This document shows positions 18,743 through 37,119 of a stretch of 64,000 nt of DNA, one piece after another. The DNA lies in contig CBDEGZ010000003.1 of the NCBI GenBank assembly GCA_965238175.1, positions 2,432,001 to 2,496,000 of the forward strand, written 5' to 3'. Every line of letters begins with the position of its first letter. Within the stretch, counting starts at the first letter, position 1. Made by a program: the position numbers and the translations under genes. Under the pieces are notes generated by a model. The model was not told the origin of the DNA, ran no database searches, and was given only the letters and a program-made list of their open reading frames with translations. Source of the DNA: Gammaproteobacteria bacterium (GTDB lineage Bacteria > Pseudomonadota > Gammaproteobacteria > CAJXQU01).

Positions 18743-19798
18743 CTACAATTGATTGAAGGATCTATAAAGTTGATTGACTGTAGCAATTGCTTTGTCACTA
18801 GTGTCCCATTCACCATCGCCATCAACTGGAACAATTTTGGTGCTACTATCGCCAAGATCGGTCAGGCTAAGACGTACACTTTTGTCATCATCCGAGTCCG
18901 GGGATTCTAAATGTTTAAACACACCGGACAGACGGATTTTCAATCCCTCATCTTTCTCCTTTTGCGTACCTAAGGTATAGAGACCACGTAAACTATCCGC
19001 TTCGCTGATATTGAGACCGATCTGCTTCAAAGCCCGTGCTGTACTGAACCAGGCTTGCTCAAAACCCTCCAGCAAATGTATAGAAACCTTGCCATTTCCG
19101 GTATCGATTAATTTCACTCTGGTGGTTGCCGAGTCAGAGACACTGGAAACAGGTCCTGATAAATCAGCTGAGATCTGGCTAGAAGTAGCCGTTACTACTG
19201 TGTCCAAACGTTGCGTGTTGTTCAATTCTTCTGTTTTTTGAATGGAGTTGTTGTTCTCCGAAAAGGCCTTGTGGAGTTGTTTGATCGTGTCGACAGCTAC
19301 GTCGCGCGTATCCCAGTTGCCTGCCCCGTCAACAGGAACGATTTTCGTACTATTATCTTCCAAACTAATCAATCTGATACGTACACTCTTTACACCCTCT
19401 GAACCATCCTTACCAAAAGATTCCAATGATTCTAAATGCTTTAGTACTCCTGAGGTTCGTATTACAAAACTTTTATCTTTTTTTTCTTTTGGTTTTTGTT
19501 TCAAAATATAGAACCCACGCTGAGCATTGGCCTCACTAATCTCAAAACCAACCAACTCAACGGCACTGGACGTACTTTGCCAGGCTTGCTCAAAACTCTC
19601 GCGCAAGCGGACAGAAACCTTATCGTTACCAGAATCAACCAAGTGTACATAGCCTCCTGACTGAAGTTCGCCGATACTCCGATCAGATACAAGTGTATAT
19701 GTATTTGGTGTGGAAACCACACGACTACAGCCAGCCATAAAGACAACAATAATCAACAGGTTCGATATAACAATTTGTCTTAGCATAGGAATACTCAT
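18743..19798 (-). CDS. Lipoprotein with two tandem BamC/NlpB-like domains
   Basis: Lipobox FMAGC and two copies of FEQAW..T..A....G..ISEA...RG.Y.L...SGV.KHLES...STKIVPVDG.G.WDT. Confidence 0.65.
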   Translation of the reverse strand: MSIPMLRQIVISNLLIIVVFMAGCSRVVSTPNTYTLVSDRSIGELQSGGYVHLVDSGNDKVSVRLRESFEQAWQSTSSAVELVGFEISEANAQRGFYILKQKPKEKKDKSFVIRTSGVLKHLESLESFGKDGSEGVKSVRIRLISLEDNSTKIVPVDGAGNWDTRDVAVDTIKQLHKAFSENNNSIQKTEELNNTQRLDTVVTATSSQISADLSGPVSSVSDSATTRVKLIDTGNGKVSIHLLEGFEQAWFSTARALKQIGLNISEADSLRGLYTLGTQKEKDEGLKIRLSGVFKHLESPDSDDDKSVRLSLTDLGDSSTKIVPVDGDGEWDTSDKAIATVNQLYRSFNQL

Positions 19799-19983
19799 TT
19801 GCAGATTGAAAATAATTTTAGAAAGAAGAAAATGATCAATCTCTCTAGTCGTTGACTCGCAAGCGATATTTAACCGGCACAGAAACCCTTTCCCTTTATC
19901 TTTTTTGGTTAAATTATTATGTACAGTGGCTCAAGCCTTAATTCTTCCTTTCTTACACGAAACTTAGACTCTGTAATAAAAAA

Positions 19984-20032
19984 GTCCCTGGTTCACTGAA
20001 TTATGGAGGTTCATTTTTTGTGACCCAGGGAC
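19984..20032. terminator. Stem-loop downstream of the porin gene, possible terminator
   Basis: GTCCCTGGTTCAC...GTGACCCAGGGAC inverted repeat; an A-run on the left becomes a T-tail on the minus strand. Confidence 0.4.
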
Positions 20033-20134
20033 AAAACAATGGATTTGTTACTATCTCCCAACCTTAAGGTTGGAGGGTAATTAATAGCATCATCCCACAA
20101 GCGTTTTACTACATATAGAAATCCCTTTCTTAAT

Positions 20135-21403
20135 CTAGAAGAACAAAATTATACCAACACTGAAGACATCGTTATCGATATCACCACCAGCCTGGTTTTC
20201 TGCTTCAAGATGTGAATATTCACCTGTTAGCATTACACCTGATGCAAGCGTATGATAAATCCCGCCAGTGATCTTGGTTTTCTCTTCAAGAACGGCAGTA
20301 CCTGCATCTACAGCGTTATCATCAAGATTGTTTACACCATAGTTGATACCATATTTGGTGTTACCTGCTGCATACGTTGCCTGCAGCAAATAACCATCAC
20401 TATCGCGTTCCTCACCTGTTGGATCAACGGCATCAATAAAGTAACCAGTATGACCTAAGCCCTGAGCATGATGGTATGTTCCTGTCAATGTCAGGTTAGA
20501 GAAACTATACTGACCTGTGAGATCAATACCATACGCCGTGTAATCGGATGTTAATGCACCAGCGCTAGCCTCTACTGATTGGGCGAGAAAAGTTGAGGAA
20601 ATAAACCCTCCGTTGAAATTAAATCTTAACCTGCCGTGTGCGCCTGGCAGCTCAGAACCAGTCTCAGCACCTGCGAATGTACCGCTGTTAAAGGAAAAAC
20701 TTGATAGGTTTAAAGGTTGGAAAAGACCAATTTGAGCGACCCACTGATCACTGGTTGGTATTGTCCAGGTAAGCTGGGTAATACGATCCAGGAAGATGTA
20801 ACCCGTACCAGCCGCACCTAACTGAGTGTTCACTGGGTTATTGACCAAAAAGTTACCACCCACTGAAGAAACAGACATATCCTGGAAAGTTGAGTCATAA
20901 GCAAAAACGCCCCAAGCACGACCGACCAATATCTGTCCTATGCTTTCGTTACCCAAAGTCATCCAGATACGAAAACCTGATCCATCATCACCGACATTGA
21001 ATGCTTCATTAGTATCTAACCCACGATCAAAAGTAGAGAAGACACCTATGTCATAACCACCAGCAGTTGTTGACAGACCGAATTCCAGTATCGTTGGCAA
21101 ATAACCATTAGTGATTGCGTTTGGATCCTGATCACCACCACACAAAAATGCCCCTACAACCAAGGCACCATTATCATCGCAAGTATTATATATATAACTT
21201 GCATTGAAATTCCCATGTACTGAGAACGTCCAGCCTTCATTTTCAATTTCAAAAGCATTGGCTGATAAAGAACCGATCGCACATAAACTTGCTACCGATA
21301 ACGTACTGATTTTTTTCCGCATTATTTTATTAATCATTTTTCCACTCCGTAATTTTGTTTTGTTTAATGTTTGTCTTTCCAGACTATTCGTTATTACTGT
21401 CAT
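20135..21403 (-). CDS. Outer-membrane porin (Gram-negative general/DcaP-like)
   Basis: Signal peptide ending SANA-F, alternating beta-strand pattern and C-terminal Phe (VFSVGIILFF). The true start is probably a later Met. Confidence 0.85.
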   Translation of the reverse strand: MTVITNSLERQTLNKTKLRSGKMINKIMRKKISTLSVASLCAIGSLSANAFEIENEGWTFSVHGNFNASYIYNTCDDNGALVVGAFLCGGDQDPNAITNGYLPTILEFGLSTTAGGYDIGVFSTFDRGLDTNEAFNVGDDGSGFRIWMTLGNESIGQILVGRAWGVFAYDSTFQDMSVSSVGGNFLVNNPVNTQLGAAGTGYIFLDRITQLTWTIPTSDQWVAQIGLFQPLNLSSFSFNSGTFAGAETGSELPGAHGRLRFNFNGGFISSTFLAQSVEASAGALTSDYTAYGIDLTGQYSFSNLTLTGTYHHAQGLGHTGYFIDAVDPTGEERDSDGYLLQATYAAGNTKYGINYGVNNLDDNAVDAGTAVLEEKTKITGGIYHTLASGVMLTGEYSHLEAENQAGGDIDNDVFSVGIILFF

Positions 21404-21673
21404 TTATTTCCCCCATAATTTCACTTAATCTAAACAGCTGCTATTTTTCTATCCAGTGCATCTTTAAGAATGTTCTATCTCTGAGACGCACCTCACCCCT
21501 GACACCTACATATCGCCATTTTTTCGAAGCCATTCTTCGAGAGTTAATTTTTTGAATTTCATCTACTGATTAATAGACGCTTATTCAATTTACTCTGGGT
21601 AAAATAACCTAGTAGCTTCGCCTCCTGGATTTTCAAAAATCCTTGTCTTACCGTATTTATACAAAAAATAAAG

Positions 21674-22081
21674 CTATCCGTACTTCTCCATTAAACCAGC
21701 GATGCGTTTTAAAAATATGGCATGCTCGCAGGCCTCTTCTGACGAATAAGAACCATCGAGTATTTCGACAGGTTCTCCTCGTACGCCGGAGGAAATACCT
21801 ATTCTGTAATCCTCAAACATGCGTACACAAACGCTCACGTATTTACCGGCCATTGGATGTCGGCGTAATTTATCAAGTAACGTTCTCAGATCCTGGCTAT
21901 GTTCTATTGCTGGCTGACCATTCTTAGGTGGTGTACCCACAGGGTTAGCTTTGTGTTCAGCAATCAGGCGACGACGTGATTCATCCTCAAACAACAGCGG
22001 CATTACATAGCGACGCGTCATGTGATCGTCAGCCCCTTCATAACCTTCGTTTGCTTGCACACCTTTTTGTTTATCTAACAT
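21674..22081 (-). CDS. N,N-dimethylformamidase small (alpha) subunit homolog
   Basis: LIAEHKANPVG...GKY...EEACEHAIFLKRI matches the DmfA1 pattern EEHAANPFG...EEEAMHAVFLRRI. Confidence 0.8.
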   Translation of the reverse strand: MLDKQKGVQANEGYEGADDHMTRRYVMPLLFEDESRRRLIAEHKANPVGTPPKNGQPAIEHSQDLRTLLDKLRRHPMAGKYVSVCVRMFEDYRIGISSGVRGEPVEILDGSYSSEEACEHAIFLKRIAGLMEKYG

Positions 22082-22129
22082 CTTGTATTCCTCTTAATTT
22101 CAAGTAATAAGTGCTATGACCTTTATTCA

Positions 22130-22498
22130 TCAATGGTTTCGACAAGGTGTAAATTCACCGCGCTCATCTTTAATGCGCTGCGCTTCCTCTTGCGCCAGTT
22201 CTGGTGAGTCGTAAACTTTGTCCTCAAACAATATGATAGGTTTTGCACGATCTGCATTGAGTTGTCCCACACACCACTGTTTATCCGGTTTAATACAAAC
22301 GACGACATAAGCACCTGAGATCGCTCCATACTTATTGTTGTTCAGCTTGAACAGGCATTCAGCTACATCGATAACCTTTTCCTCATCAAGCGACTCCATC
22401 ACCAATTTTTCTAAATCGTTAGGCGGAATCGAACTTGCACCAAGTTCAGATTTGCCCGGTGGTGGATCCAACATGTCGGGGTGTTGATTTATTGTCAT
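22130..22498 (-). CDS. Small protein resembling the C-terminal half of the DMFase small subunit
   Basis: GAYVVVCIKPDKQWCVGQL..DR.KPI.L..DKVYDSPELAQ aligns by eye with GKYVSVCVRMFEDYRIG....RGEPVEI.DGSYSSEEAC of the neighbouring gene. Has a GAGG RBS. Confidence 0.6.
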   Translation of the reverse strand: MTINQHPDMLDPPPGKSELGASSIPPNDLEKLVMESLDEEKVIDVAECLFKLNNNKYGAISGAYVVVCIKPDKQWCVGQLNADRAKPIILFEDKVYDSPELAQEEAQRIKDERGEFTPCRNH

Positions 22499-22524
22499 AT
22501 CACTATCCTCATGTGGTTTTACGT

Positions 22525-24888
22525 TTAAGGTAAATCACCTTCTTTCAAGAAGCCTTTGATCGCATTTTCAGTCAGCCTGGAGACGTTGTTGTTGTAGTTG
22601 TTGTGCGAAAGGCTGCCGCACCATGACAATGATCCTGGTGCGAAGGTTGCTCCACCATTTGGTGTTTTGTAATAGACCATGTCTGCACGCACCATTGGAT
22701 TTTCCGTACCGCTGCCGTGATAACCGCGGACAGAGAAATGAATTTCTTCGTTAACCTGCAGCATTAGATTGGTGTGCCCTTCTGAATGCGCTAATAGATA
22801 TGCGTCGTGCGGTGTACCGAATTCCAGGTCGTAGCGATCAAGTTCCAGACCGGCGGCACCGCCACCAACTAAGCCGAAGTCACCAATTTTTTCGCCATTA
22901 CCAATACCTTCCATAATCCAGGCAGTTTCTGGCAACTCACTGTCCTTATCACGCACATAATAAGAAGACACATCGAAACCATAAGCTGTGAAAGTCAGGC
23001 CACAAAGCTTACTTGGAATACGTCCTCGTGCACGCCACATGCCACCGTACTTACCATCAAAGGCGTTATTGTATTCACCAGGATTAGCTGTCCAGGCACG
23101 GGTACCTGCTTCGCCTTTACGTACTTCAATAATGTTGGAATTATCTGGATGATATTGACTGATCCAATAGAAACCATTCGCACCCAGATAGATCCAGCGT
23201 CCACCTTCCTGCTGATATCTCTCATAAGCTGAGAACATGTTTTCTGAGGTATATTCAGGGTGACTACCCGTCAATACCGTTCGATATTTATTCAGTAAAG
23301 CAACGCCTTCACGATCCAAATCTTCATCAGTATGAACGTCATAATCGAAGCCTTTTTCATCCAGCCAGTCAATTAAGTGCAGGTCACCATTAAGTTGCCA
23401 AAGCGATGGAGACAACCAGTGACGATACTTGGGACGCATGTTCAGAATTGGACGCAAACGTGATGAATAGCTCACACCACTCCCATCGGAATGTAATGAA
23501 TAGGTAGATAAACCATATTCCCTATGCTCATTCAGATACAAATCTGAAGCAGTCATAACCGGAACCTTACCAGCGAGCAATTCAGCAACAACACAGTTAG
23601 TCGCCAGGTTATCGTTGGAATACGCCATATAGGAATTAGTCGGTAAGATAAACGCTAGTTTTGAGGTAGTTGTACCGCGTGGGGGACGTATAACAAAGGG
23701 AATATAATCTTCTGTTTCTGGCGAATCCACACCACCGATCCTCAGGCGTGCAGCATATACACCACTTTTCAGATTGTCAGGAACTGTCAGTTCAAAGTCC
23801 ACATCCCAGCGAGCATCATCGATATCGTCATCGTGGAAATGAATAGCACCGTATTCTTCTGGTTTATGATGATAAACAATCTCGTCACCAGTCCAATTAA
23901 AACCGGTCATACCTCGACATGGCATATTTACAATGTAACCGTGGAGTCGAGAAGTCGACAGATCAAGAATATGTGTACTTGCAATATTCTTAGTGATGTT
24001 GGCATGAAAATCCCAAGCTCCGATCACATCATTGCGCACATCAGGATGACAATATTGAAAACCGCGTGCCAACGCTTCGATTTCTGCTTTAGAGAGGGCA
24101 CGACGAGATAATCTAGGTCGATCGATCTTACCGTTATAAGTAGCACCGCGAGTTTGTTCTGGCAACTCAATCGCTTCAGGAGCTTCCTTAAAGTGTGCTC
24201 CAGAAATACTACGTCCTGATCGCTCAGTCCAGGTACTAGCAGCCATCAGAAATGGGGCATCATTTATTCCTGGCTTCATACTGTTAATCGATTCAACAGT
24301 TGCTGTAGTTTCTTCAGCAGGGTTCAGAATACCTTGTCCCAGACCACCATTGGTTGGAGTCACAACAGGCTCTTGATAAAGAGTGACTTTGCCTGTTCGT
24401 GCATCGTAGCTAACTGCCGCAAGATACCAGACCTTTCGTAATAATTTCTTATCACTGGAAATTTTCATTACCTGCCCAGAACCATTACCAATTCTTGCTT
24501 CCAGGCAACCATTTTTATCGATAAATAATCCGTAACCACTTTCCGAATGATCAACCCATTTGGTTAGAAGCCCCTGACGTCCTTTCTCAGGTGTGGTTGG
24601 AAAGATATAGCACTGCAATGTAAAACTTTCTACATTCAGGCGTTCATCCTGTGGAACGATAATATAAGAACCACCATGAATTTTTTGATTACGTCCTGGA
24701 TAACTTTTATTGCAGGATGCACTAATTTCCTCTTCTTTATATCCAGGACCTTCCGGGTTGGTATCACCATGGATCAAACGTACGAGTTGGGTATCGTAGA
24801 CCTCGTCTTCCTCGGAATTAATATAGAACTTAATATTATCCCCGGGACATATAGAATATTTATCGCTATAACCAGTAATTCTTAACAT
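22525..24888 (-). CDS. N,N-dimethylformamidase large (beta) subunit homolog
   Basis: 787 aa with N-terminal TGYSD...RLIHGD.NPEGPG, a LamG-like insert, and active-site-like motifs SYMAYSN, GLSTY..H.DGSG, GSHPEY and AAGLELD. Confidence 0.92.
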   Translation of the reverse strand: MLRITGYSDKYSICPGDNIKFYINSEEDEVYDTQLVRLIHGDTNPEGPGYKEEEISASCNKSYPGRNQKIHGGSYIIVPQDERLNVESFTLQCYIFPTTPEKGRQGLLTKWVDHSESGYGLFIDKNGCLEARIGNGSGQVMKISSDKKLLRKVWYLAAVSYDARTGKVTLYQEPVVTPTNGGLGQGILNPAEETTATVESINSMKPGINDAPFLMAASTWTERSGRSISGAHFKEAPEAIELPEQTRGATYNGKIDRPRLSRRALSKAEIEALARGFQYCHPDVRNDVIGAWDFHANITKNIASTHILDLSTSRLHGYIVNMPCRGMTGFNWTGDEIVYHHKPEEYGAIHFHDDDIDDARWDVDFELTVPDNLKSGVYAARLRIGGVDSPETEDYIPFVIRPPRGTTTSKLAFILPTNSYMAYSNDNLATNCVVAELLAGKVPVMTASDLYLNEHREYGLSTYSLHSDGSGVSYSSRLRPILNMRPKYRHWLSPSLWQLNGDLHLIDWLDEKGFDYDVHTDEDLDREGVALLNKYRTVLTGSHPEYTSENMFSAYERYQQEGGRWIYLGANGFYWISQYHPDNSNIIEVRKGEAGTRAWTANPGEYNNAFDGKYGGMWRARGRIPSKLCGLTFTAYGFDVSSYYVRDKDSELPETAWIMEGIGNGEKIGDFGLVGGGAAGLELDRYDLEFGTPHDAYLLAHSEGHTNLMLQVNEEIHFSVRGYHGSGTENPMVRADMVYYKTPNGGATFAPGSLSWCGSLSHNNYNNNVSRLTENAIKGFLKEGDLP

Positions 24889-24936
24889 GATATTTCCTCA
24901 AACTTTTATTAAATAGAAATGACAGCTTCTCAATTT

Positions 24937-26880
24937 TTAATTGTAAGCAACTCTTTCAATTTCCTTTTCCGGCGTGGTCGACATCCGCATTTTATTAGCT
25001 AGAAACCAGATCATAAGTACACCGAGTGCCCACCAAATAATCTGCCATGCCCAGAGAGATGGCATTCGGAAAACCCAAGCGTCATAACCTGCATTTGGTT
25101 CTCCGAATAAAACATTGCCTAATAGTGATCCCGGACCAATAGCAAAAAACATCCACACCATCACCATCACACCTGCCACAGGTTTCGACCAACGATCACA
25201 AACCTCTGAAGCTGTGTATTCATGGAAAAAATCGTGAAAGGAATCTCGCCACTTACGATCATCGATATCCTCGCGTGAAGAAGCAGAAACAATCAGACAG
25301 ATAACAAGGTTGAAAAACATACCCCAGGCAGCGGAATGAATAGTCCATGGCCATACACCCCATGGCAGCGAACCACCTGTGAGTTTCTGACCTAACGGCT
25401 CAGTCAAAACAACTGCAATCAAACCGACGATTAAACCTGCTGTTGCCGCACTCCGGGTGATAAATGAGAACCAGGTTACTGCTAACAGTGAAGGCCACAG
25501 TTGGAATGCACAGGCAATGGCTAAGCCGCCTAACAGCATGGTTGCTTCCATCGAAAAAGAAGCCAGTAGCATTGCCGCAAGGAACACCAAACCTGTGCAC
25601 AGACGTGCAACCAACATCTGTTTCTTATGGTCAGCTTCGGGCTCCAGAAAACGAAGATAAATATCACGAGCCAAGATGCTGCCCGTGGTTGACATAAAGG
25701 CAGAACCGGTAGCTTGTAATGCTGCAATAGCACACACAGCCAGGAAACCAATTAGCCAGGGCAAGCTTCCACCGATCAATTTGATATAGTGCGCAACCAA
25801 TTCATTTTGTTGATGCTCTGATAAGACAGGCAATAAATTAGCAACTGCAAAACCAGCTTCGTTAACATCGGCGTTGGCACCTAACAAATGAGCACTGACA
25901 CCCTGAAAGGTTGCAAAAACAAACATCAGAATGCCAACAACACATGCAGCACCCCAAATCTGATGAATCGCAAAACCCCGTGGTGAACGGCTGGCAAAAC
26001 CTAACATGGAAAATGAAGGTGACGCCTGAATACCCATAACTGACATCATGAAGGTCAGGATCATAATAGAGGTCCAGGGACCTCCCGTTGGTGTTTCAAC
26101 ACCTAATCCGCTTGTCCATTGAATAACCCCTGGCACTGCAAAATAACCGGGGAAATTACCACCACCTAGACCTTTAGTTTCAGCCGAATGACTGGCTAGG
26201 TTTTGCGCGATATTAGCCAAACCAGCATTCAATGAGTCGAAGCCGCCTACAAGATCTAAAGCGTACGTTCCCAACACCACCATGCCCAGTATAAAGAGAG
26301 CACATTGCACAACCGCAACTTTAGCAACAGCTTGCATACCGCCTATAACACAGTAGAGCAACACAAAACCTGAGAGACCCCACATAGCAACTGTGCGAGA
26401 CACTTCTCCATTAGTTAGCTCGCTGATCAGGAAGCCGGAAGCACCAAAGAGAATGGCAACAAAAGGAATACCAAATAGCAGGGCAATGAAGACAGAGATA
26501 AGACGTAATGTATTACCCTTAAAATAATCTGCCAACATCTCACCAGATGTCACATAGCCGAAGCGTTGACCTAACATCCACTGCCGTTTAAGTAAGACAA
26601 CACCACTCAAAGCAACAGCCACTGCGTAAAAAGACGCGTTGGCGAACTGAAAACCATCTCGAAAAACTAGTCCAGGATGTCCTATAAAAGTCCATCCTGC
26701 AAAAGAAACCCCAGTAGCGGCAAGCGCAAAAACCCATGGCGACAAACTTCTTCCAGCGAGAAAATAATCGCTAGCAGTGTCCACACGTCGGCACGCACGC
26801 ACGCCCCAGAAGAAGCAATACGCCCAGTAAAGCATCAAAAAAACTAGCAGCCAGGCGGTATTATCAGTCATGTTATTCAA
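24937..26880 (-). CDS. Sodium:solute symporter (SSS family)
   Basis: Motifs DYFLAGRSL, SFAGWTFIGHPG and GYVT.GEML.DYF, with about 15 hydrophobic helices. Confidence 0.9.
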   Translation of the reverse strand: MNNMTDNTAWLLVFLMLYWAYCFFWGVRACRRVDTASDYFLAGRSLSPWVFALAATGVSFAGWTFIGHPGLVFRDGFQFANASFYAVAVALSGVVLLKRQWMLGQRFGYVTSGEMLADYFKGNTLRLISVFIALLFGIPFVAILFGASGFLISELTNGEVSRTVAMWGLSGFVLLYCVIGGMQAVAKVAVVQCALFILGMVVLGTYALDLVGGFDSLNAGLANIAQNLASHSAETKGLGGGNFPGYFAVPGVIQWTSGLGVETPTGGPWTSIMILTFMMSVMGIQASPSFSMLGFASRSPRGFAIHQIWGAACVVGILMFVFATFQGVSAHLLGANADVNEAGFAVANLLPVLSEHQQNELVAHYIKLIGGSLPWLIGFLAVCAIAALQATGSAFMSTTGSILARDIYLRFLEPEADHKKQMLVARLCTGLVFLAAMLLASFSMEATMLLGGLAIACAFQLWPSLLAVTWFSFITRSAATAGLIVGLIAVVLTEPLGQKLTGGSLPWGVWPWTIHSAAWGMFFNLVICLIVSASSREDIDDRKWRDSFHDFFHEYTASEVCDRWSKPVAGVMVMVWMFFAIGPGSLLGNVLFGEPNAGYDAWVFRMPSLWAWQIIWWALGVLMIWFLANKMRMSTTPEKEIERVAYN

Positions 26881-26904: not shown

Positions 26905-28926
26905 TTACGTATTAGCCCGGTCACTCTCAGAACTACCGCCATTCCCATCTTTGTAATCCCCAAGAATATTTGTAATATTGCCAATTTCGTTTGGCGACAT
27001 ACCAATTTCATTGAGCAGGTTGTCAACGAATGGCATTTGTGCGCGATAACGCAGAGCTGAATTTACAATGTTGTCAGATAGACTACTTTGAGATCCTCCC
27101 AAGTCACTATTCACAGGACCTAAGCCTCCACCATCACCGTTTACACTTGCGCTGCTACCATTGAAACCAGGCATACCATTAACTTCATAAATCTTGATAC
27201 CGTCGATGTTTTCCATCGGTCTAACCGCTTCGCGGATAATCGAATCAAGATTCTTAGCCAACTGCATACGCAGATCACTTTGACGACTTTTATCGCTTCG
27301 AGCATTTTCAGCCTCATTCAGCATCAACCTGCCGGCAGCATCCACTTCGTAACGCAGCTTGCTCGCCAAAGAACTATGCTTCTCTGCCTGTTCACGTTCC
27401 TGAGATGCTTCTTTCTCGGCTTTGGCAAGAGTTGTAATTTGAATTGCTTCGCTTTCACCTTCTTGTGTGGCATGGATCAGTTTCAGTTTCTTATGTCGCT
27501 CAGCAACCTCGACTTCCCTTGCTGATGAAACCTGCTCCTCGGCAACGACTGTTTGTGCACGCATCTGCTCTTTAACTTCGTTTGCTTTAAGCACCTGCAC
27601 AGATTTTTCTGTTACGGCCAACTCACGATCATGTTCCTCAATCTCAAGTTGTTTACGTTTTTCAATTTCACGTGTTTTGGTTTTTTCTTCGTTTTCAATA
27701 CGCGTGGTTTCAATAGCACGCTGCTGCTCGATTTTTGATTTCTTAACGCTTTCTTCCGCTTTCAATTGAGCCTGCTCAGCTTCACGGTAACGTTCAGACT
27801 CCTCCTTAACCACATCAGATTTTTGCTGAGCGCGACGCTTAGCAACTTCTTCTTCCTGTGCTAATCGAGCAAACTCATTATCCTTCTCAATTTCCAGCGA
27901 TCTGATTTCACTTTCGAGATTTTTCTGTTTAATTTCAATCTCAGTTTGCCTTTCAATTTCGTTGCGCAGTTTTTTTCGTTCTTCTATCTGCAACGTCAAC
28001 TTGTGTTCACGTAACGAGCGCTCAACTTCAATCGTGTCCTGTTGAGATATACGTGCTTTTTCAACTTCCTCAACGGCATTGATTTTGGCTTCTTCTGCAA
28101 CACGTTCCTGTTCCGCACGCTCAATTGCTATTTCTGTTTGCTCTTTGGCACGTTGCATGGCAATTGCACGTTCTTGCATAAGACGTGCAAACTCTCTTTC
28201 CTTATCAATTTCCAGCGTGCGCTGTTCAGTTTCGAGATTTTTAGATCGAATTTTAATCGCTGTATCCTGCTCGATATCATTACGTTTTTTCTTACGGGAT
28301 TCGATTTGCTCAGTCAGTTGAGTTAGACCTTCAGCATCGAATACATTGGAAGGATTGAAGACTTCCAGACCGGCCTGATCTAATCCAGTCAGGGAAACAG
28401 CTTCTAACTCAAGCCCCGTTTCGCTGAGTGAATCTTTAACCAATGCCTTAACAGCCTTGATATATTCGCCACGCTTTTCCTGTATTTCTTCCATGGTCAT
28501 TTGTGCAGCGACAACACCTAACGCATCAATGAAACGACCCTGAACTAACTCACGCAAGCTCTCTGGCTCCAATGTCCGCTTACCCAGAGAACCCGCTGCT
28601 ACAGATACAGCTTCTTTTGTGGGAGTGACGCGAACATAAAATTCGGCCACAATTTCCACCCGCATACGGTTCTTTGTGATAAAGGACTTATCTCCACCAC
28701 GTCGTACCTCAATACGCAAAGTCCTCATACCAACTGTTGTGATGTTATGAATGATGGGTAATACAAATGCACCGCCACTCAGAACAATTTTTTCACCTCC
28801 AAGACCGGTTCTGACAAACGAAACTTCTTTGGACGAACGGCGATAAAGCCAATGTAATAGATAAACCGCGATAGCAATGGTAAGTGCTACCAGAATGATT
28901 ACTGCAATAATGTCTGCACCAGTCAT
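26905..28926 (-). CDS. Flotillin/SPFH (YqiK-like) protein
   Basis: N-terminal TM helix, SPFH motifs FVRTGLGG and GLELEAVSLT.LDQ...F..NVFDAEGL, a long E/A/K coiled coil and a C-terminal PMENIDGIKI. Confidence 0.93.
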   Translation of the reverse strand: MTGADIIAVIILVALTIAIAVYLLHWLYRRSSKEVSFVRTGLGGEKIVLSGGAFVLPIIHNITTVGMRTLRIEVRRGGDKSFITKNRMRVEIVAEFYVRVTPTKEAVSVAAGSLGKRTLEPESLRELVQGRFIDALGVVAAQMTMEEIQEKRGEYIKAVKALVKDSLSETGLELEAVSLTGLDQAGLEVFNPSNVFDAEGLTQLTEQIESRKKKRNDIEQDTAIKIRSKNLETEQRTLEIDKEREFARLMQERAIAMQRAKEQTEIAIERAEQERVAEEAKINAVEEVEKARISQQDTIEVERSLREHKLTLQIEERKKLRNEIERQTEIEIKQKNLESEIRSLEIEKDNEFARLAQEEEVAKRRAQQKSDVVKEESERYREAEQAQLKAEESVKKSKIEQQRAIETTRIENEEKTKTREIEKRKQLEIEEHDRELAVTEKSVQVLKANEVKEQMRAQTVVAEEQVSSAREVEVAERHKKLKLIHATQEGESEAIQITTLAKAEKEASQEREQAEKHSSLASKLRYEVDAAGRLMLNEAENARSDKSRQSDLRMQLAKNLDSIIREAVRPMENIDGIKIYEVNGMPGFNGSSASVNGDGGGLGPVNSDLGGSQSSLSDNIVNSALRYRAQMPFVDNLLNEIGMSPNEIGNITNILGDYKDGNGGSSESDRANT

Positions 28927-28965: not shown

Positions 28966-29679
28966 TTACTCAGCAACAGGATGATTTATGGCATTTGTGT
29001 CACTAATAGCAGCCTTATAAATTACGAAACCAAAGATGATCTTGTTTAAAAAATCAGCTAGGTTATAAATAATGTTGAGACTGTTAGTATCAACCCCTCC
29101 ACCCAGGTTATTGATAAAGTATCCGAGTGGATAAATTGCCCAACCGATAGTGACGATCAACCGTAATCCGTTAAATGCCATATGCGTTGCCTCGTTACCG
29201 CTTTCAGTATTAACGCGTCCAGCCTCACCCATATAGAGCTCACCGAGAATGTACAGCCAACCGACCACACCGATAATGAAACCCAAAGTTGCACTCATAT
29301 AACCTGCCGCACCCAGGAACTCACCAATAACCATAACCAATGATCCAATTAGCAAACGCCAAAATAAGGCTGGCGACACCTCTGTCACAGCCGCTAGCAC
29401 CACGTAAAACAGCACCACCTGCATTGAATGCGACAGTACCCAATCCACATAGCGCAAAATAATCGGCGCAGTACCCGTATCCACCCACATGCTTTTTGTG
29501 TAGTGATAAAAAATAGCGGAAACCAGCATCACAACACCGAGCAATGTCATCGTCGTGTGCCATCGGCTGTCCACCCTGTTTCTTTCCAGCAGGAAAAAAA
29601 TGGTGGCTCCGATCATGGCCATTGACAATAGCCAGAATGATCCACCTACTACGTCTGTTGGTAATAACATCTTGTTCAT
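28966..29679 (-). CDS. Proteorhodopsin-like microbial rhodopsin (flotillin-associated type)
   Basis: Seven TM helices with PR hallmarks SFWL, FFLLER, RYVDW, GWAIYPLGY and NIIYNLADFLNKIIFG (retinal-binding Lys). Confidence 0.95.
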   Translation of the reverse strand: MNKMLLPTDVVGGSFWLLSMAMIGATIFFLLERNRVDSRWHTTMTLLGVVMLVSAIFYHYTKSMWVDTGTAPIILRYVDWVLSHSMQVVLFYVVLAAVTEVSPALFWRLLIGSLVMVIGEFLGAAGYMSATLGFIIGVVGWLYILGELYMGEAGRVNTESGNEATHMAFNGLRLIVTIGWAIYPLGYFINNLGGGVDTNSLNIIYNLADFLNKIIFGFVIYKAAISDTNAINHPVAE

Positions 29680-29750: not shown

Positions 29751-31175
29751 TTATATCTGCGTCCGTATGTGCGGTGAACGTGCATACAAGGCCACCATCG
29801 GCAGAATCAGCAAACCAAACACGAATTGCTGCCCTTCAAAACTCAAACCGATACCCACAAGAAACGACGACAGTACTTGTAGAACAAGCACACCAATGAC
29901 CGTGAATCCATAGCCGCCAATACCACCAAGCAAGGAAGTCCCCCCTACAACAACCGCAGCCAGCGTCATGAACAAATACTGATCGCCCACACCGATAAAA
30001 GCACCGCCACTCCAACCCAGCAGCAAAGCGCCAGTCAAAGCTGAAATCAAACCGCTGATGCAATACACACCCACCCAGTAGGAGTGCTCTGAAATTGACA
30101 AGCGTGCAGCTGCTATTCGACCGCCACCCAAGGCGTAGAGATTTCTTCCCCAGCTTGAATTACGTAATCCAAAAATCAGAATGATGGCCGCCAGGATCCA
30201 GACAACAACAACCGGCGGAATACTAATACCGGCGATGCTGCCATTGACAGAGGCAATATTAGTTAACCAATTAGGAACAACACCGAACACGGTGCCACCG
30301 GAGCCAAGAGTAGTGATAGTTTGAACACCACCAGAGACAGCAAAACCAACCCCCAGTGTCAGGATGAGGGCCTGCCCCTGTAGTTTGAAACTCAATAGAC
30401 CGTTGACAAGCCCAATGGCGGCACCAACCAGCAGCACCGCAAGGATGGCAAGCCAGGGTGGGATGCCCATGTTGAGCAGGAACATCAAACCAACGTTCGA
30501 ACCACCGATAACAAAGGGAATGGATAGATCCAAGCCGCCCAGCAAAGCAACCAGTGTTTGCCCGATACAAGCCAGCCCCAAAAACGAAGCAAACAGCAGC
30601 ATTGATTTGAGATTCAACGTAGAAAGAAATCCCTCTACAACCAAGATACCAATAATAAAAAGCCCAATAAGAACGGTGAGACCCAAGTAAGCACTTTTAT
30701 TATTTTTAACGTTTTTATTAATAACAATGCCAATAACAATCAGCAGGACAAATACAAGTGCCGCGAGGATATTAGACGGTTGAAAGAAGTCCTCGACAGC
30801 AGCACCAACGGCAAAGAAAAGGGCGATCCCGAGCAAAATACCAATCAAGGCACCCTTGTATCTGGAGATAAGTAAACTAAAATAACTTTGTTCGTGCTCA
30901 TCCTCATCACCAGGTTTTACTTCTGCTGCTGCAACTGGCTCAACTGCTTCAGCCTCTGTTGTGCTGATGGCTATTGCATCATCACGATATATCCAGCGCA
31001 CTGAAAAGTGGTGCCAACCCCATAAAATGAGACCGAAGATTGCAACCGTGTAGAAAACAATGTGTTGTGTAGGCATATCATCAAGCGATCCCAGTACAGC
31101 ACTGACCCCAGCGACTAGCATTGCGATAACTAAACCCAGTCCCTTGTAAAACGAAAAGGCGCCTCTGGTGCTCAT
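29751..31175 (-). CDS. ABC permease (RbsC/BPD_transp_2 family) with an N-terminal membrane extension
   Basis: Motifs GQTLV.L.GGLDLS, GRNLYALGG...AARLS and AAVVVGGTSL.GG.G; 474 aa. Confidence 0.88.
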   Translation of the reverse strand: MSTRGAFSFYKGLGLVIAMLVAGVSAVLGSLDDMPTQHIVFYTVAIFGLILWGWHHFSVRWIYRDDAIAISTTEAEAVEPVAAAEVKPGDEDEHEQSYFSLLISRYKGALIGILLGIALFFAVGAAVEDFFQPSNILAALVFVLLIVIGIVINKNVKNNKSAYLGLTVLIGLFIIGILVVEGFLSTLNLKSMLLFASFLGLACIGQTLVALLGGLDLSIPFVIGGSNVGLMFLLNMGIPPWLAILAVLLVGAAIGLVNGLLSFKLQGQALILTLGVGFAVSGGVQTITTLGSGGTVFGVVPNWLTNIASVNGSIAGISIPPVVVVWILAAIILIFGLRNSSWGRNLYALGGGRIAAARLSISEHSYWVGVYCISGLISALTGALLLGWSGGAFIGVGDQYLFMTLAAVVVGGTSLLGGIGGYGFTVIGVLVLQVLSSFLVGIGLSFEGQQFVFGLLILPMVALYARSPHIRTQI

Positions 31176-31211
31176 TTTATTTGCTCTTATCCTCCTCTAT
31201 ACGCATAATGA

Positions 31212-33410: not shown

Positions 33411-33574
33411 TTTTGTTGACTCTTAATCACGGTTCGTATTAACCCTATGTATGTTTACTGAAGTCCACAGGGTGAAAAAATTGCAGACTTCTTCATATTT
33501 AATATCTTGACTCTTGCAACACATTCAATCCTGCTTAACTCACTTGGACGCTGACACTAACAGGCACATCAGTG

Positions 33575-35893
33575 CTATTTCTCTCCAAGCATCAACTGGT
33601 TAAATTTTTGCAGATCCTTTTCGCTATACTCGAATGGACTAGAAACTGCTTGCCGGGACTTCTCCTTGTGGTTCTCAAATTTCGCCTTACTTTCTTTTTT
33701 GCCTACAGAGATGAACTCATTACTATGGGGCTCCTCAACCTCCGGCTGCATAAGCTCCTGGAATCTACGCTCGTCTGCATCGCTGTAATTTGCACCGTTA
33801 TCTCTACACCCAGAAAAACGTGTTACCTTTCTGCCCTTTTTCTCAAAAACCATCAGCTCCTCAAAATTACGTGCGTCATCCTCCGAGTATTGGGTTCCTG
33901 TCGACGACACTATTTCTTCATGTCGCTTATCATCATCACGAAGCCCCAAAATATCTTCTTCAACACCCGAAGATATCATCAACTTTTCGAACTGGTCTTC
34001 ATCACTTGAGCTATAACCATCTTTGCCCAGACTTGAAGTCAGAGGCTCTTCTTTGAAATATTTGCTTACGTTGAGTTTGCTCACATTGAACTCCGAGTTT
34101 GTCTCTTTGTTTGTTTCTGATTCGACTTTTTCCGAGGGTTTAATTTCAGACTTAATTGACTGCTGACTAATGGTGTTTTGCTTCAACAGCAGCTGCTTTT
34201 CTCTGTCGCTTTTCGGTTTGCTGACAGTCTTTCGGGGGCTTGTTTGTTTACTATTGCCAACGGCTGCTCTCATTTTTCGTTCCAGGTAGGCCTGATGAGA
34301 ACCATCTTTGCCCTGATAGCGACCAAACATCGACTCGAGAATGCCGACCGGCTCAATCTTTTCATCTACAAATTCTTCAAAAATACTGCCATTACGAAAC
34401 ACCAGAACGCGCGAACAAAATCCAATAAATTCTTCCAGTTCGCTTGACATATAAATTGCCGAACTGCCTTCCCCGGCGAATTCACGCAATTGCTTGTAAA
34501 GATCCCTTTTGGTATGCAAGTCAATACCACGAGCAGGATCCAGCAAAACCAAGGTTTTTGGATGGGTCGCGAAAGCACGTCCCAGCATTACTTTTTGCTG
34601 GTTACCACCACTCAATGAGGTGATCAGGTTTTCTTTCGGTCCGGTTTTAATGGCAAGACGCTCGACCTCCCAATCAAAAACATCTCTTAAACTAAACCAG
34701 TCAATCAAACGTGCACCAGGCAACTTCGAATGACTGTGATATAAGGGGAGTAATAAATTCTCAAAAATACTTAAATTCGGGAGAATGCCTTCTTTTTTAC
34801 GATCACCCGATACAAATGCGATATTATGAGTTTTAGCATCGTCCAGACTTCTAATGGTGAAATAATCTTCTGAATTTTGCTTTCTCACCAGAGTATGACC
34901 ATCACTAGCTTCTTTAACTCCAGCAATAATGCGGCAAAAATCGTCCTGACCGTGACCATCCAAGCCAGTAACACCGATAATTTCACCCTTTAACAGATCG
35001 AAATTCATCGGTTCAGCATCGGCCCAAACCTTCATATTCCTGGTTTTTACGGCAGACTCGGTGTTCGTTGTTTGATGAGCATCACCAATTTTCGGCTTTT
35101 CCGACTCAGACTTGCCAGTCATTAAACGCAACAGGTTTTCTTCGGTGATTTCCTCTTTTTGCAAAACACCAACATCTATGCCATCGCGCATCACCGTGCA
35201 ACGATCACTGACACGAATCAACTCCGCGATGCGGTGAGTAACGATAATAATCGCAGTACCAGCATCCCGCATTTGCCGCATTTTTTCGAACAGCCGTTCC
35301 GTTGAATCAAAATCCAACGCAGCGGATGATTCATCGAGAATCAGAAGATCCGGATCACATAAAAAACCACGGCAAATGGTTATCCATGCTTTGATACTTA
35401 ATGGCAAAGTACCTGCTAGCTGCAGCGGATCAATCGGCTCGCCGCACATCTCACTCATCAACTCACGCGCCTTGTCCTCTTTCTCCGTGTCCGACATAGA
35501 TTTTGAGAAGAAACCATCAGAGCCAATAAACAGGTTATCAACCACCGAAGCCTCGTCAGCGACCAGTACTTCCTGGAATACCATAGCAACCCCGACTGAA
35601 CGGGACTCGCCTGGCGTACTAGGATGATGCCCTTTAATAGATACCTTCCCTGAATCAATTGGTAAAACACCAGCCAGCACTTTGGCCATAGTACTTTTAC
35701 CACAGCCGTTACCCCCGGTAATCGCGTGAATCTCACCGAAATTACCGTTAAAGGTAGCACCGTTCAAGGCTTTGGTTACCCCAAATGCCTTATGGACATT
35801 CCTAACATAAAGGTCACCCGGATAGGTGGTTAACACTTCCCCTGCAACTCCTGAGGAATTATTCTCAGGTGTTTTGTCGGCTGCGATTTCCAC
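33575..35893 (-). CDS. Sugar-type ABC ATPase (RbsA-like, two NBDs) with a ~245-aa charged C-terminal tail
   Basis: Motifs GGNGCGKST, LILDES, VTHR and LSGGNQQK. The tail contains four YSxxDxxxFxxLM repeats. Confidence 0.9.
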   Translation of the reverse strand: MEIAADKTPENNSSGVAGEVLTTYPGDLYVRNVHKAFGVTKALNGATFNGNFGEIHAITGGNGCGKSTMAKVLAGVLPIDSGKVSIKGHHPSTPGESRSVGVAMVFQEVLVADEASVVDNLFIGSDGFFSKSMSDTEKEDKARELMSEMCGEPIDPLQLAGTLPLSIKAWITICRGFLCDPDLLILDESSAALDFDSTERLFEKMRQMRDAGTAIIIVTHRIAELIRVSDRCTVMRDGIDVGVLQKEEITEENLLRLMTGKSESEKPKIGDAHQTTNTESAVKTRNMKVWADAEPMNFDLLKGEIIGVTGLDGHGQDDFCRIIAGVKEASDGHTLVRKQNSEDYFTIRSLDDAKTHNIAFVSGDRKKEGILPNLSIFENLLLPLYHSHSKLPGARLIDWFSLRDVFDWEVERLAIKTGPKENLITSLSGGNQQKVMLGRAFATHPKTLVLLDPARGIDLHTKRDLYKQLREFAGEGSSAIYMSSELEEFIGFCSRVLVFRNGSIFEEFVDEKIEPVGILESMFGRYQGKDGSHQAYLERKMRAAVGNSKQTSPRKTVSKPKSDREKQLLLKQNTISQQSIKSEIKPSEKVESETNKETNSEFNVSKLNVSKYFKEEPLTSSLGKDGYSSSDEDQFEKLMISSGVEEDILGLRDDDKRHEEIVSSTGTQYSEDDARNFEELMVFEKKGRKVTRFSGCRDNGANYSDADERRFQELMQPEVEEPHSNEFISVGKKESKAKFENHKEKSRQAVSSPFEYSEKDLQKFNQLMLGEK

Positions 35894-35931
35894 TTATCCG
35901 GGCCCTTCCACAATCAATTAATTACTAAAGA

Positions 35932-37119
35932 TTAATGAGTTGCTGGATCGTATTTTGTTGGATCTGCTGGGCGCAGGAAGAAATTATCCAGATAACCGGG
36001 TCCACCCCAGCGATCAACACCTACATTCAGCCATTCGGTAGAATTGCGATCACAGTCCTCACCTAGCAAGGCTTCAACCTCCTCATATTCAATCAATACT
36101 GATGGCACTAATACGGACTGAATCTTAGGCCCTTGTCCCTGCATGGTACGCATCATGATGTTAAAGCCCAGTTCGATATCATCACCTGGAGGCCAGGTTT
36201 GAATCGCACCGCTGATATAATCAGGGTTGTTGCGCCAGTAGCACAATGCACCCATTTCACCACCAATGGACATTGGCGGAATATCATCACGACCTGACTG
36301 CAAGATTGCCTGCAGTACGCCAGTTTCACCTGAAGATTGCACAGCAATGCCATCCAGTTCGCCGGGGTGCGTTGCTAGCCACTTCTGCGTTTCCGCCTGA
36401 CCAACCTGAGAGGTCCACATGTGAGCGATATTACCTGTGACCTCAATATCTTCAGATTGTGACAAACCGTCCAGAACACCACGGTTTTGAGAGTCGGATG
36501 CAGATGCACCAGGAATACCTTCAATTACCAGGACATTACCTTCCTCATCAATTTCTTCTGCCATCCAACGGCCTATTTCATAGCCAGCCTGATGGTAGTT
36601 AACCGATGAGTTAACTACATAAGGTGAGGTGACATAACCTGTGAAGGAAAACACCGGTACACCTTTGTCATAAGCATATTTAATAGATTGATTTAGAGCA
36701 GTTGGATTTGAGCAACAGATAATGATTGCATCAACACCCTGATCAACTAGCTGTCGAATCTGTTGAATCTGCAGAGAATCTTTTAGATTGGATTGCGTAA
36801 CAATTATATCTTTGAGTAAGCCAAGCTCTTGCCACTTTGGCTTTAACTCTCCAAGCAGACGCTCCATTGCGCCTTTTCGCCAGGTATTACCAGCATAGGT
36901 ACTGGCATAACCAATAGTCCAAGGTGGCTTACGCTCACTTTTCCACTCTCTAAAGACGCTAATATCAAGCGGTTGTGCTGGATCTGTATATTTTGGGTCA
37001 TATGCTTTTTCTCGAATATCATCAGGAATCTCATCAAGACCTTCTGCTACAGATGTAGCCGACAACCCTAACGAACACGCAACTAATGTGATTAGCTGAA
37101 TTATTTTTCTCATAATCAA
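35932..37119 (-). CDS. ABC substrate-binding protein (RbsB/Peripla_BP_4 family)
   Basis: Signal peptide, then IGYASTYAGNTWR, QIQQIRQLVDQGVDAII and IEGIPGAS. Confidence 0.9.
   Translation of the reverse strand: MIMRKIIQLITLVACSLGLSATSVAEGLDEIPDDIREKAYDPKYTDPAQPLDISVFREWKSERKPPWTIGYASTYAGNTWRKGAMERLLGELKPKWQELGLLKDIIVTQSNLKDSLQIQQIRQLVDQGVDAIIICCSNPTALNQSIKYAYDKGVPVFSFTGYVTSPYVVNSSVNYHQAGYEIGRWMAEEIDEEGNVLVIEGIPGASASDSQNRGVLDGLSQSEDIEVTGNIAHMWTSQVGQAETQKWLATHPGELDGIAVQSSGETGVLQAILQSGRDDIPPMSIGGEMGALCYWRNNPDYISGAIQTWPPGDDIELGFNIMMRTMQGQGPKIQSVLVPSVLIEYEEVEALLGEDCDRNSTEWLNVGVDRWGGPGYLDNFFLRPADPTKYDPATH

Follow-up and report, generated by a model that had tools for sequence, protein, structure and literature searches.

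A FArhodopsin-flotillin gene cluster with transporter and N,N-dimethylformamidase-like genes on an acquired island of a gammaproteobacterial genome with no second rhodopsin detected

The window analysed here is a stretch of 64,000 nucleotides from a gammaproteobacterial genome (GenBank assembly GCA_965238175.1, contig CBDEGZ010000003.1, positions 2,432,001 to 2,496,000; the genome is called G000 below). It contains a copy of the published gene cluster of flotillin-associated rhodopsins (FArhodopsins, FAR), located on a horizontally acquired island of about 35 kb. The function of FArhodopsins is open, and the leading published idea links them to a proton pump and to dim light. G000 offers a natural experiment in which FArhodopsin is set apart from phototrophy. 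Because two carriers, G000 and a further genome (G312), are without a pump, the cluster would work alone, and its purpose would lie in the genes that always travel along with it. On balance, though with little to spare, the analysis favours a regulated, light-independent import and hydrolysis of a small amide-like solute, in which FArhodopsin and flotillin would serve as a membrane scaffold. Such a reading turns the vague idea of a 'membrane microdomain' into testable predictions on substrate, induction and contacts.

Gene content and relation to the published FAR gene cluster

Twelve minus-strand open reading frames (ORFs) fill nt 18743-37119. Their order, domains and spacing had been given in a preliminary description made from the sequence, and the ORF listing and Pfam annotation agree with it exactly, down to the gaps of 24-71 bp between perm1 and sm2. 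In order of transcription the genes are:

35932-37119 (-): SBP1, CUT2-type periplasmic binding protein, 395 residues; Peripla_BP_4, E 3.5e-37; signal peptide; core gene
33575-35893 (-): ATPase of the ATP-binding cassette (ABC) importer, 772 residues; two ABC_tran domains; low-complexity tail of ~250 residues
31212-33410 (-): perm1, CUT2 permease with a C-terminal membrane domain, 732 residues; BPD_transp_2 at residues 49-313 only
29751-31175 (-): perm2, CUT2 permease with an N-terminal membrane extension, 474 residues; BPD_transp_2 at residues 190-458 only
28966-29679 (-): FArhodopsin, 237 residues, predicted to be without retinal; Bac_rhodopsin, E 1.1e-31
26905-28926 (-): long flotillin, 673 residues; Band_7 and Flot
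24937-26880 (-): SSS symporter, 647 residues, with a C-terminal extension; SSF, E 4.5e-26
22525-24888 (-): DMFL, large subunit like that of N,N-dimethylformamidase (DMFase), 787 residues; Laminin_G_3 and DMFA2_C, E 1.4e-95
22130-22498 (-): sm1, divergent small-subunit-like protein, 122 residues; no Pfam match; paralog of sm2
21674-22081 (-): sm2, homolog of the DMFase small subunit, 135 residues; no Pfam match; PDB 6lvb_B
20135-21403 (-): porin-like outer-membrane protein, 422 residues, accessory; no Pfam match of its own, PF13609 on relatives
18743-19798 (-): BamC-like lipoprotein, 351 residues, accessory; Lipoprotein_18 (NlpB/BamC), E 7.3e-11

The gaps between them are 38 nt (SBP1-ATPase), 164 nt (ATPase-perm1), then 36, 71, 39, 24, 48, 26 and 48 nt from perm1 to sm2, and finally 270 and 336 nt. 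The non-standard additions that had been pointed out (repeats in the ATPase tail, extra transmembrane domains, a duplicated flotillin coil) are all real, and are described below.

A 'FAR gene cluster' of ~26 kb was described by Haro-Moreno et al. in 2023 (PMC10308929) from single-cell genomes of SAR11, HIMB59 and Pseudothioglobus, in which the rhodopsin always precedes a flotillin gene of ~1,977 bp. Neighbours named there are genes for an inner-membrane translocator, a sodium symporter, an N,N-dimethylformamidase, PxpA and a biotin-dependent carboxylase, with a LuxR regulator and a hybrid kinase in the Pseudothioglobus clusters, and co-transcription of rhodopsin and flotillin is reported for one SAR11 cluster. 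The function of the cluster was left open in that account, its authors favouring support of the proteorhodopsin pump in dim light; a standard pump was said always to accompany FAR, and marine FARs to be limited to three streamlined clades. Elsewhere the FAR cluster is treated as a structural variant, either present or absent (PMC12379486).

The window copy resembles the clusters of PMC10308929 in having a FAR-clade rhodopsin followed on the same strand by a flotillin of ~660 residues, together with DMFase, sodium symporter, 'inner membrane translocator', LuxR and hybrid kinase genes, and in lying on a flexible island; in the current study it was also found to match the cluster of Ca. Pseudothioglobus Uisw_041 gene for gene. 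These shared genes were thus on record already in PMC10308929, and the preliminary description had itself named a published account of the cluster as what would remove its novelty. What is new is the pump- and blh-free host, the acquired island and the conserved ten-gene unit, although supplements S2-S4 of PMC10308929 may already list some of the genes, and Table S2 in particular the ABC genes. Unlike the hosts described there, the present one has a 3.35 Mb genome, belongs to a different small order and is without proteorhodopsin. The gene order in the window is co-linear, as in Ca. Njordibacter, in contrast to the split order of Pseudothioglobus, and porin-like and BamC-like genes are appended to it.

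FArhodopsin

The rhodopsin aligned without gaps over residues 1-230 to PDB entry 9r21, a 'flotillin-associated rhodopsin' (PsFAR; 436.9 bits, E 1.7e-130), as against 217.8 bits (E 1.5e-63) for the paralogous pump PsPR (9r22), 222 bits for 4jq6, and E-values of 1e-65 or weaker for proteorhodopsins. It is therefore a protein of the microbial rhodopsin fold that stands nearer to FAR than to the proteorhodopsins, and the flotillin gene follows on the same strand 39 nt downstream. Residues S54, F57, D79, H84, E120, G137, D209 and K213 are identical to those of PsFAR, so that a bulky residue 84 and E120 stand in the retinal pocket while the helix-G lysine (K213) is kept. At positions 83 and 90 the window protein has Ser and Leu in place of the Thr and Met of PsFAR, and L90 occupies the proton-donor position. 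The marks of a proteorhodopsin pump, namely a carboxylic donor (E92 in PsPR), a helix-B histidine and an open pocket, are replaced at the aligned positions by L90, F57 and H84/E120. A proteorhodopsin paralog in the same genome, which belongs to the 2023 description of FArhodopsins, was not found, G000 having one match to PF01036.

The structure of PsFAR was solved by cryo-EM (9r21; Kovalev et al., preprint 10.1101/2025.04.29.651185). According to that preprint, the protein stays colourless when retinal is added; its retinal pocket is filled by H84 and E120, and retinal was bound only after both had been replaced. PsFAR is described there as keeping the rhodopsin architecture, water-filled cavities and a conserved Lys213/Asp79/Asp209 cluster, and the Discussion sees no obvious adaptation for flotillin binding. 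In contrast to PsFAR, the ortholog in the window is known from its sequence, and by this measure it is near certain to be a FArhodopsin closely orthologous to PsFAR. Because of this orthology and the retention of the blocking residues H84 and E120, it is predicted to be free of retinal. For the same two reasons, together with the leucine at the donor position and a genome without blh or proteorhodopsin, it is almost certainly not a pump. The preliminary description had reached a similar view, in which the rhodopsin was flotillin-associated and acted as a sensor or scaffold rather than as a pump.

The public collection carries a shortened version of this rhodopsin (P0186, 174 residues, 73% of the query), while the 237-residue ORF aligns to PsFAR from residue 1; the gene as publicly annotated is probably truncated. 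Fusions of FAR to neighbouring genes were considered for long ORFs in three metagenome loci (L136, L107, L150), but these are explained by read-through of stops in tblastn or by an upstream alternative start, and no fusion was found.

Host genome and island

G000 comprises 3,352,323 bases in three contigs, is 97.72% complete and has a G+C content of 40.4%. A search of the whole genome with PF01036 returned a single match, the window rhodopsin. The same search returned two matches each in Ca. Njordibacter Uisw_039 (G001), Ca. Pseudothioglobus Uisw_041 (G002) and a P. singularis single-cell genome (G003), and one in an incomplete single-cell genome (G004); the first two are cultured carriers with closed genomes (PMC12509534). 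The absence of blh (PF15461), noted earlier for the window, extends to the whole of G000; in Njordibacter the gene lies a few kb from the pump. A search for heliorhodopsin, for which there was no positive control, was blank in every genome tried, G000 included. One SQS_PSY gene is present in G000, far from the window (C3:3048426-3049307), where Njordibacter has two, one of them beside the pump and blh. Contig C1 of the assembly has 10,967 bases and 55.8% G+C, compared to 40.4% for the chromosome.

Among 400 sampled genomes of the class, one other carries the cluster, namely G312 (5.4 Mb, 95% complete, 290 contigs), a second carrier without a pump. The FAR there shares 84% identity with that of the window and is likewise the only PF01036 match. 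G000 and G312 contradict two claims of the 2023 study, that of an ever-present pump and that of a restriction of marine FARs to three clades, and they widen the host range of marine-type FARs beyond those streamlined groups.

The order to which G000 belongs comprises just seven genomes, G000 and six congeners. None of the six (93-99% complete) matched the rhodopsin query, which elsewhere detects proteorhodopsins at 41-50% identity, and none matched DMFL or the flotillin. The region missing from them is:

~9900-45000 (~35 kb, approximate extent): island, absent from the six congeners

On either side, DNA at nt 8000-9870 and 45027-48000 has matches of 70-87% in congeners, while between these only short patches of paralogs match. 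The G+C content of the island is 43-46%, against the genome mean of 40.4%, and nt 12-36 kb lie at the 88th-98th percentile of G+C. The window has no tRNA, no flanking repeats longer than 10 nt and, among the annotated ORFs, no integrase. The island, read as horizontally acquired, is defined by its absence from congeners and its composition only, and since the flanking genes are not syntenic in the congeners its ends are approximate. A 107-nt match in G008 and some short self-matches were considered as border repeats and discarded, as they represent a palindrome of the repetitive extragenic (REP-like) kind that is spread over the genome. Near the left border a truncated AMP-binding ORF (nt 9136-9717, 193 residues, covering 1-170 of a 384-position profile) ends before a palindromic REP-like element of ~36 nt (nt ~9709-9745), which recurs at no fewer than nine other places in the genome.

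Conservation of the unit across lineages

In Njordibacter all 15 genes of the region (SBP1, ATPase, perm1, perm2, FAR, flotillin, SSS, DMFL, sm1, sm2, kinase, LuxR, SBP2, ATPase2 and perm3) are present in the order of the window. The same 15 occur rearranged in Ca. Pseudothioglobus Uisw_041, where SSS-perm2-perm1-ATPase is on the opposite strand and SBP1-FAR-flotillin-DMFL-sm1-sm2 forms a tight co-oriented block. G312 carries nine of the ten core genes on a contig of 61% G+C; the tenth, sm2, was not found, and the contig ends just past sm1.

Metagenome loci were collected with a 44-sequence FAR alignment, and the counts that follow refer to the best 80 of 461 confirmed relatives (63-86% identity), in which orthologs were called by tblastn at gene-specific identity cut-offs of 40-60%. 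Flotillin follows FAR in all 76 loci with at least 200 nt downstream. DMFL is found in 33 of 33 loci with at least 7 kb downstream and in 49 of 52 with at least 3 kb; in the three misses (L132, L139, L140) other genes intervene and the contig ends before the enzyme. Both sm1 and sm2 are present in each of 23 loci with at least 9.3 kb downstream. Where at least 9 kb is available on both sides, SBP1, ATPase, flotillin, DMFL, sm1 and sm2 occur in 15 of 15 loci, perm1 and SSS in 12 each and perm2 in 11. The misses of perm1, SSS and perm2 are loci of the Pseudothioglobus type, in which these genes are farther off, as in the cultured strain, and L106 also is without perm2. Of the 60 loci with at least 1.5 kb upstream of FAR, 31 have perm2 and 20 have SBP1 as its immediate upstream neighbour, the other nine having no query gene there. 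The amidase genes always follow downstream of FAR and flotillin, in the same orientation (33/33 metagenome loci), and do so also in Njordibacter, the cultured Pseudothioglobus and G312.

At least five arrangements of these genes were seen, in DNA of 34-63% G+C. Loci with a DNI motif, F84 and 34-36% G+C fit the description of HIMB59 in PMC10308929. Their order runs from divergent ATPase and SBP1 through PxpA, biotin carboxylase, perm1, perm2, FAR and flotillin to an ORF of 129 residues, an alpha/beta hydrolase, SSS, sm2, DMFL, sm1 and an MBL-fold protein. The conserved core has ten genes: SBP1, ATPase, perm1, perm2, FAR, flotillin, SSS, DMFL, sm1 and sm2. A neighbourhood survey had been recommended in the preliminary description, and the linkage of rhodopsin and flotillin with DMFase, SSS and enlarged ABC genes indeed recurs widely. 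Two other features were seen in L106, a metagenome contig of 49% G+C: an IS481-type transposase gene (rve and helix-turn-helix domains; nt 8662-9354, minus strand) ~650 nt upstream of FAR, and a hydantoinase B/oxoprolinase gene nearby (nt 313-2385, minus strand).

Flotillin

The window flotillin consists of an N-terminal membrane anchor (hydrophobic residues 6-24), an SPFH (Band_7) domain, a duplicated coiled coil and the Flot C-terminal domain, the combination expected of a flotillin, while its score against the FloT equivalog is only 29 bits for a cut-off of 700. The coil duplication is plain from a comparison of residues 211-315 with 317-422 (48% identity over 106 residues, E 1e-29). Relatives were found in 61 genome loci. 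Eight of them have 75-79% identity, and all eight occur with FAR, SBP1, DMFL, sm1 and sm2; the other 53 have 37-56% identity and occur without any of these five. There is, then, a FAR-type flotillin subfamily that is specific to FAR/DMFL loci. Two loci from alphaproteobacterial metagenome-assembled genomes (L023, L062) encode flotillins of 685-689 residues with an N-terminus like that of the FAR type, 38% overall identity and no rhodopsin nearby.

SPFH proteins form cages around membrane clients, as in HflK/C with FtsH and in flotillin complexes, and flotillins of other bacteria serve many clients. The present locus is similar in that an SPFH/flotillin gene lies beside the gene of a multimeric integral membrane protein; it differs in that the flotillin-FArhodopsin pairing is known from the genes. 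A single alignment-based complex prediction, for flotillin residues 1-205 with FArhodopsin, gave a score of 0.00 and was weighed neither way.

DMFase-like amidohydrolase

No protein of the unit is as well conserved as DMFL (72-91% identity across loci), which aligned over its full length to the large subunit of Paracoccus DMFase (PDB 6lvb_A, E 3.5e-195). The Paracoccus enzyme is an alpha2beta2 protein with iron ligands Y399, Y440 and E521, essential residues H519 and N547, and F693 in the active site (PMC7686228), and all six are identical in DMFL. The adjacent sm2 matches 6lvb_B, the 'N,N-dimethylformamidase small subunit' (E 1.2e-5). Its distant paralog sm1 has no Pfam or PDB sequence match, and was related to sm2 by BLASTP (E 5e-5) and by hhalign between two family alignments of 38 sequences (91.9% probability, E 7e-7). 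An AlphaFold2 (AF2) model of sm1 had a mean pLDDT of 63.9, and Foldseek found nothing in the PDB with E below 0.077, DMFase small subunits standing at ranks 7 (6lvb_B) and 10 with a TM score of 0.34. DMFL and the two small proteins would together form a three-subunit, DMFase-like mononuclear-iron amidohydrolase with conserved catalytic residues, for which hydrolysis of dimethylformamide is a putative activity; the DMFL family also includes an N-acetyl-beta-phenylalanine acylase (8huy).

The likeness to Paracoccus DMFase (6lvb; PMC7686228) therefore covers full-length homology of the large subunit, the 2-Tyr-1-Glu ligands, H519/N547/F693 and an adjacent small-subunit gene. Unlike that enzyme, the present one has two different small-subunit-like genes instead of one, and is encoded in a marine context alongside transporter, flotillin and rhodopsin genes. 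Pacific metaproteomes have been reported to contain DmfA from Alpha- and Gammaproteobacteria (PMC9477243). A related triad occurs in G310 (5.7 Mb, 68% G+C; loci L158/L159, C39:212000-251800), with sm2-DMFL-sm1 at 74% identity and a second sm2-DMFL pair at 54%. The G310 amidase genes are adjoined by a regulator with helix-turn-helix and cupin domains, and most of the long ORFs around them are spurious frames of high-G+C DNA.

ABC importer and symporter

The importer has the make-up of the CUT2 family, with a Peripla_BP_4 protein, a fused double ATPase and BPD_transp_2 permeases, and all named NCBIfam equivalogs (ribose, xylose, YtfQRT etc.) fall far below their curated cut-offs. Of solved chains, those nearest SBP1 are CUT2 sugar/polyol binding proteins (E 6e-18); SBP1 itself is 74-85% identical in related loci. 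The ATPase is YtfR/XylG-like at residues 29-521, and its tail carries four YSxxDxxxFxxLM repeats, the positions of which are kept in both cultured carriers. With a looser pattern, 1-3 matches were found in 10 of 11 complete ATPases (713-752 residues) from outside class C, the DNI-type arrangement, the exception being L106 with 612 residues, and in none of nine class-C ATPases (587-594 residues). The tails in L142 and L153 (DNI-type) and in L106 end in IK[VI][VI]DF ... KIK[IV].[YF]F rather than in four acidic repeats.

Both permeases are enlarged. In perm1 the CUT2 part (residues ~15-320) is followed by a C-terminal part of 408 residues with about nine hydrophobic helices, which has neither a Pfam family nor a usable match in the ESM Atlas, does not resemble the other permeases and is without a paralog in G000. 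It matches just 30 of 1.84 billion representative proteins, and in the full-length ones (733-772 residues) the domain is again C-terminal. Modelled at full length with AF2 on the basis of 22 orthologs, perm1 reached a mean pLDDT of 43.8, too low for fold comparison. In perm2 a membrane extension of ~160 residues precedes the permease, with extra hydrophobic segments at 13-31 and 101-152. Orthologs have similar lengths in every arrangement class (717-762 residues for perm1, 461-485 for perm2), and the enlarged permeases seem to be confined to the FAR context. The SSS symporter has NCBIfam matches at the superfamily level only, below cut-off, and orthologs of 43-80% identity in the loci.

Proposed function and alternatives

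In the favoured working of the unit, the kinase/regulator pair (see below), perhaps with the TorT-like SBP2 as a co-sensor, would switch the unit on when the solute is present. The ABC and SSS transporters would import a small, polar, amide-like solute, and the cytoplasmic amidohydrolase would cleave it. A pentamer of FArhodopsin, together with flotillin, would scaffold the enlarged transporters in the membrane without light or retinal. The parts of this proposal differ in strength. Independence from light is highly probable, and the light-coupled alternative raised in the preliminary description is disfavoured. That FAR and flotillin are functionally tied to uptake and hydrolysis is fairly probable, while a physical scaffold made by the two is somewhat doubtful and is put forward tentatively. 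What kind of substrate is used, how the genes are regulated and which proteins touch one another are matters of inference; gene content and its conservation, the identity of the rhodopsin, the retention of the catalytic residues in the amidase and the lack of proteorhodopsin and blh in G000 are shown here or in print.

Several observations weigh against the proposal. The ABC importer belongs to the sugar/polyol CUT2 family rather than to a known type of amide or urea importer, and its solute need not be the substrate of the amidase; of the amide scavenging suggested earlier, the DMFase-like enzyme stands, and the case for amide uptake is left to that enzyme. All contacts between FArhodopsin, flotillin, permeases and enzyme are putative. 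Pumps often accompany FAR, a proteorhodopsin being present in three of six FAR-bearing genomes tested, and the absence of a pump is judged from G000, which is 97.7% complete, and from G312, which is 95% complete and in 290 contigs. The 80 metagenome loci are the closest relatives, include many near-duplicates and none of the SAR11 'DTT' type, so that the counts overstate independence. A scan for promoters and terminators returned 29 and 22 sites, where 39.8 and 16.6 were expected, nothing rising above shuffled sequence. Linkage is also one-sided, as in G310 no FAR, flotillin, SSS or enlarged ABC genes were found within ~17-20 kb on each side of sm2-DMFL-sm1.

The view published in PMC10308929 is that FArhodopsin, in flotillin microdomains, forms hetero-complexes with proteorhodopsin and aids the harvesting of dim light, in which case the neighbouring genes would be raft clients or bystanders. 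It draws on depth distributions tied in that paper to the lower photic zone, and agrees with the presence of a proteorhodopsin besides FAR in Njordibacter and in both Pseudothioglobus genomes (G001-G003). It does not fit G000, in which neither a second rhodopsin nor blh was found, nor a heliorhodopsin match (in a search lacking a positive control), and whose six congeners have no rhodopsin. FAR is alone in G312 as well, PsFAR binds no retinal, and the cluster moves between hosts with transporter and amidase genes, not with a pump; the view is consequently very improbable. Another possibility is that rhodopsin and flotillin are a general module of membrane organisation or stress, merely co-inherited with a catabolic island and with no specific tie to the ABC, SSS and amidase genes. 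The triad without FAR and flotillin in G310 would agree with this, as would accessory genes that vary by class (Pxp/carboxylase, alpha/beta hydrolase, MBL-fold, hydantoinase B, porin) and the many clients served by flotillins elsewhere (PMC10308929). It is made distinctly unlikely by a linkage that persists through at least five arrangements and hosts of 34-63% G+C with FAR-flotillin always upstream of the amidase genes, by the apparent limitation of enlarged permeases to the FAR context, and by the FAR-type flotillin, which is never apart from FAR in the 61 genome loci.

A retinal-less rhodopsin might instead be active in its own right, either sensing or regulating the transporters in a ligand-gated manner, or serving as a channel that lets a small product, for instance an amine, formate or protons, pass through its water-filled interior. 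The water-filled cavities of PsFAR, its polar H84 and E120 and the Lys213/Asp79/Asp209 cluster (preprint 10.1101/2025.04.29.651185) speak for such a role, as do the conservation of these polar residues in 42-43 of 44 relatives and the frequent position of FAR right after perm2. Yet the cluster has no transducer gene in the account of PMC10308929 or among the Pfam annotations of the window, no continuous pore is described in the Results and Discussion of the preprint, and residue 84 varies (H, F, R, Q, W and others), a better fit to space-filling than to catalysis or binding, so that an active role appears improbable. A stronger form of the favoured scaffold proposal would make FArhodopsin and flotillin structural parts dedicated to a mobile membrane machine of ten genes, with no role for light. 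The retinal-free pentamer, within a flotillin assembly, would then dock the extra permease domains and perhaps the ATPase tail, and importer, symporter and three-subunit iron amidohydrolase would be held together as one unit of uptake and cleavage. This is rather unlikely; if true, no earlier case would exist in which a rhodopsin fold had been taken over, apart from any use of light, as a scaffold for acquiring nutrients.

Regulators, second ABC system and accessory genes

Upstream of SBP1 the island carries regulatory genes and a second CUT2 system, and beyond the BamC-like gene a carboxylase set:

37943-40006 (+): hybrid histidine kinase; HAMP, HisKA, HATPase_c, Response_reg
40040-40810 (-): NarL/LuxR-type response regulator; Response_reg and GerE; beside the kinase also in Njordibacter and the cultured Pseudothioglobus
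40903-44856 (+): second CUT2 ABC system, with SBP2 (40903-42144), ATPase2 (42198-43820) and perm3 (43798-44856); two ABC_tran domains, BPD_transp_2; kept in the same two genomes
13554-17805 (+): split biotin-dependent carboxylase set; PxpA/LamB, a BCCP-like ORF of 80 residues (14323-14565, EVMK biotinylation-type motif), biotin carboxylase, CT_C_D, CT_A_B

The kinase is conserved in both cultured carriers and in loci of classes A, B and E. Its C-terminal part is of the NahK/ErcS type (363 bits, cut-off 400), it scores 197 bits on the TorS model TIGR02956, well short of the cut-off of 676, and nothing in the PDB matches its periplasmic part. SBP2 passes TorT model NF008185 (292 bits, cut-off 200) and matches TorT in PDB 3o1h_B (E 1.2e-37), but stays under the cut-off of TIGR02955 (225 bits against 310). 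The arrangement recalls TorT-TorS (3o1h) in placing a TorT-family protein beside a hybrid sensor kinase. It differs from it in that SBP2 heads its own ABC ATPase/permease pair, the kinase falls short of TorS and the regulator is of the LuxR type. By this analogy, SBP2 is perhaps a co-sensor for the kinase.

The porin-like ORF has a signal-peptide-like N-terminus and a C-terminal Phe, and PF13609 is assigned in precomputed annotation to 7 of 22 database relatives. A homolog of 61% follows sm2 in L109, whereas no such gene was found near FAR in Njordibacter or the cultured Pseudothioglobus. The BamC-like protein has a lipobox and two repeated domains, and its gene is absent from all related loci compared. 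It was considered as the housekeeping BamC and rejected as such, being an extra island copy: congeners gave just weak matches of 22-28 bits, and G000 has another weak homolog at C3:562598. Both genes had been counted as members of the cluster, and they do lie in the window, but they are accessory and outside the conserved unit.

The carboxylase set at nt 13554-17805 is complete and resembles a urea carboxylase in pieces; in class-C loci PxpA and biotin carboxylase sit within the FAR cluster. Between this set and the BamC-like gene is a minus-strand ORF of 111 residues (nt 18053-18388) with a signal-peptide-like start, a C-terminal run of lysines and no family match. At the edge of the island (nt 9983-13211) a regulator with helix-turn-helix and cupin domains, similar to the one next to the G310 amidase genes, is divergent from genes for alanine dehydrogenase and an omega-aminotransferase (AptA equivalog, 629 bits, cut-off 500), which look like an amine-to-pyruvate transamination pair.

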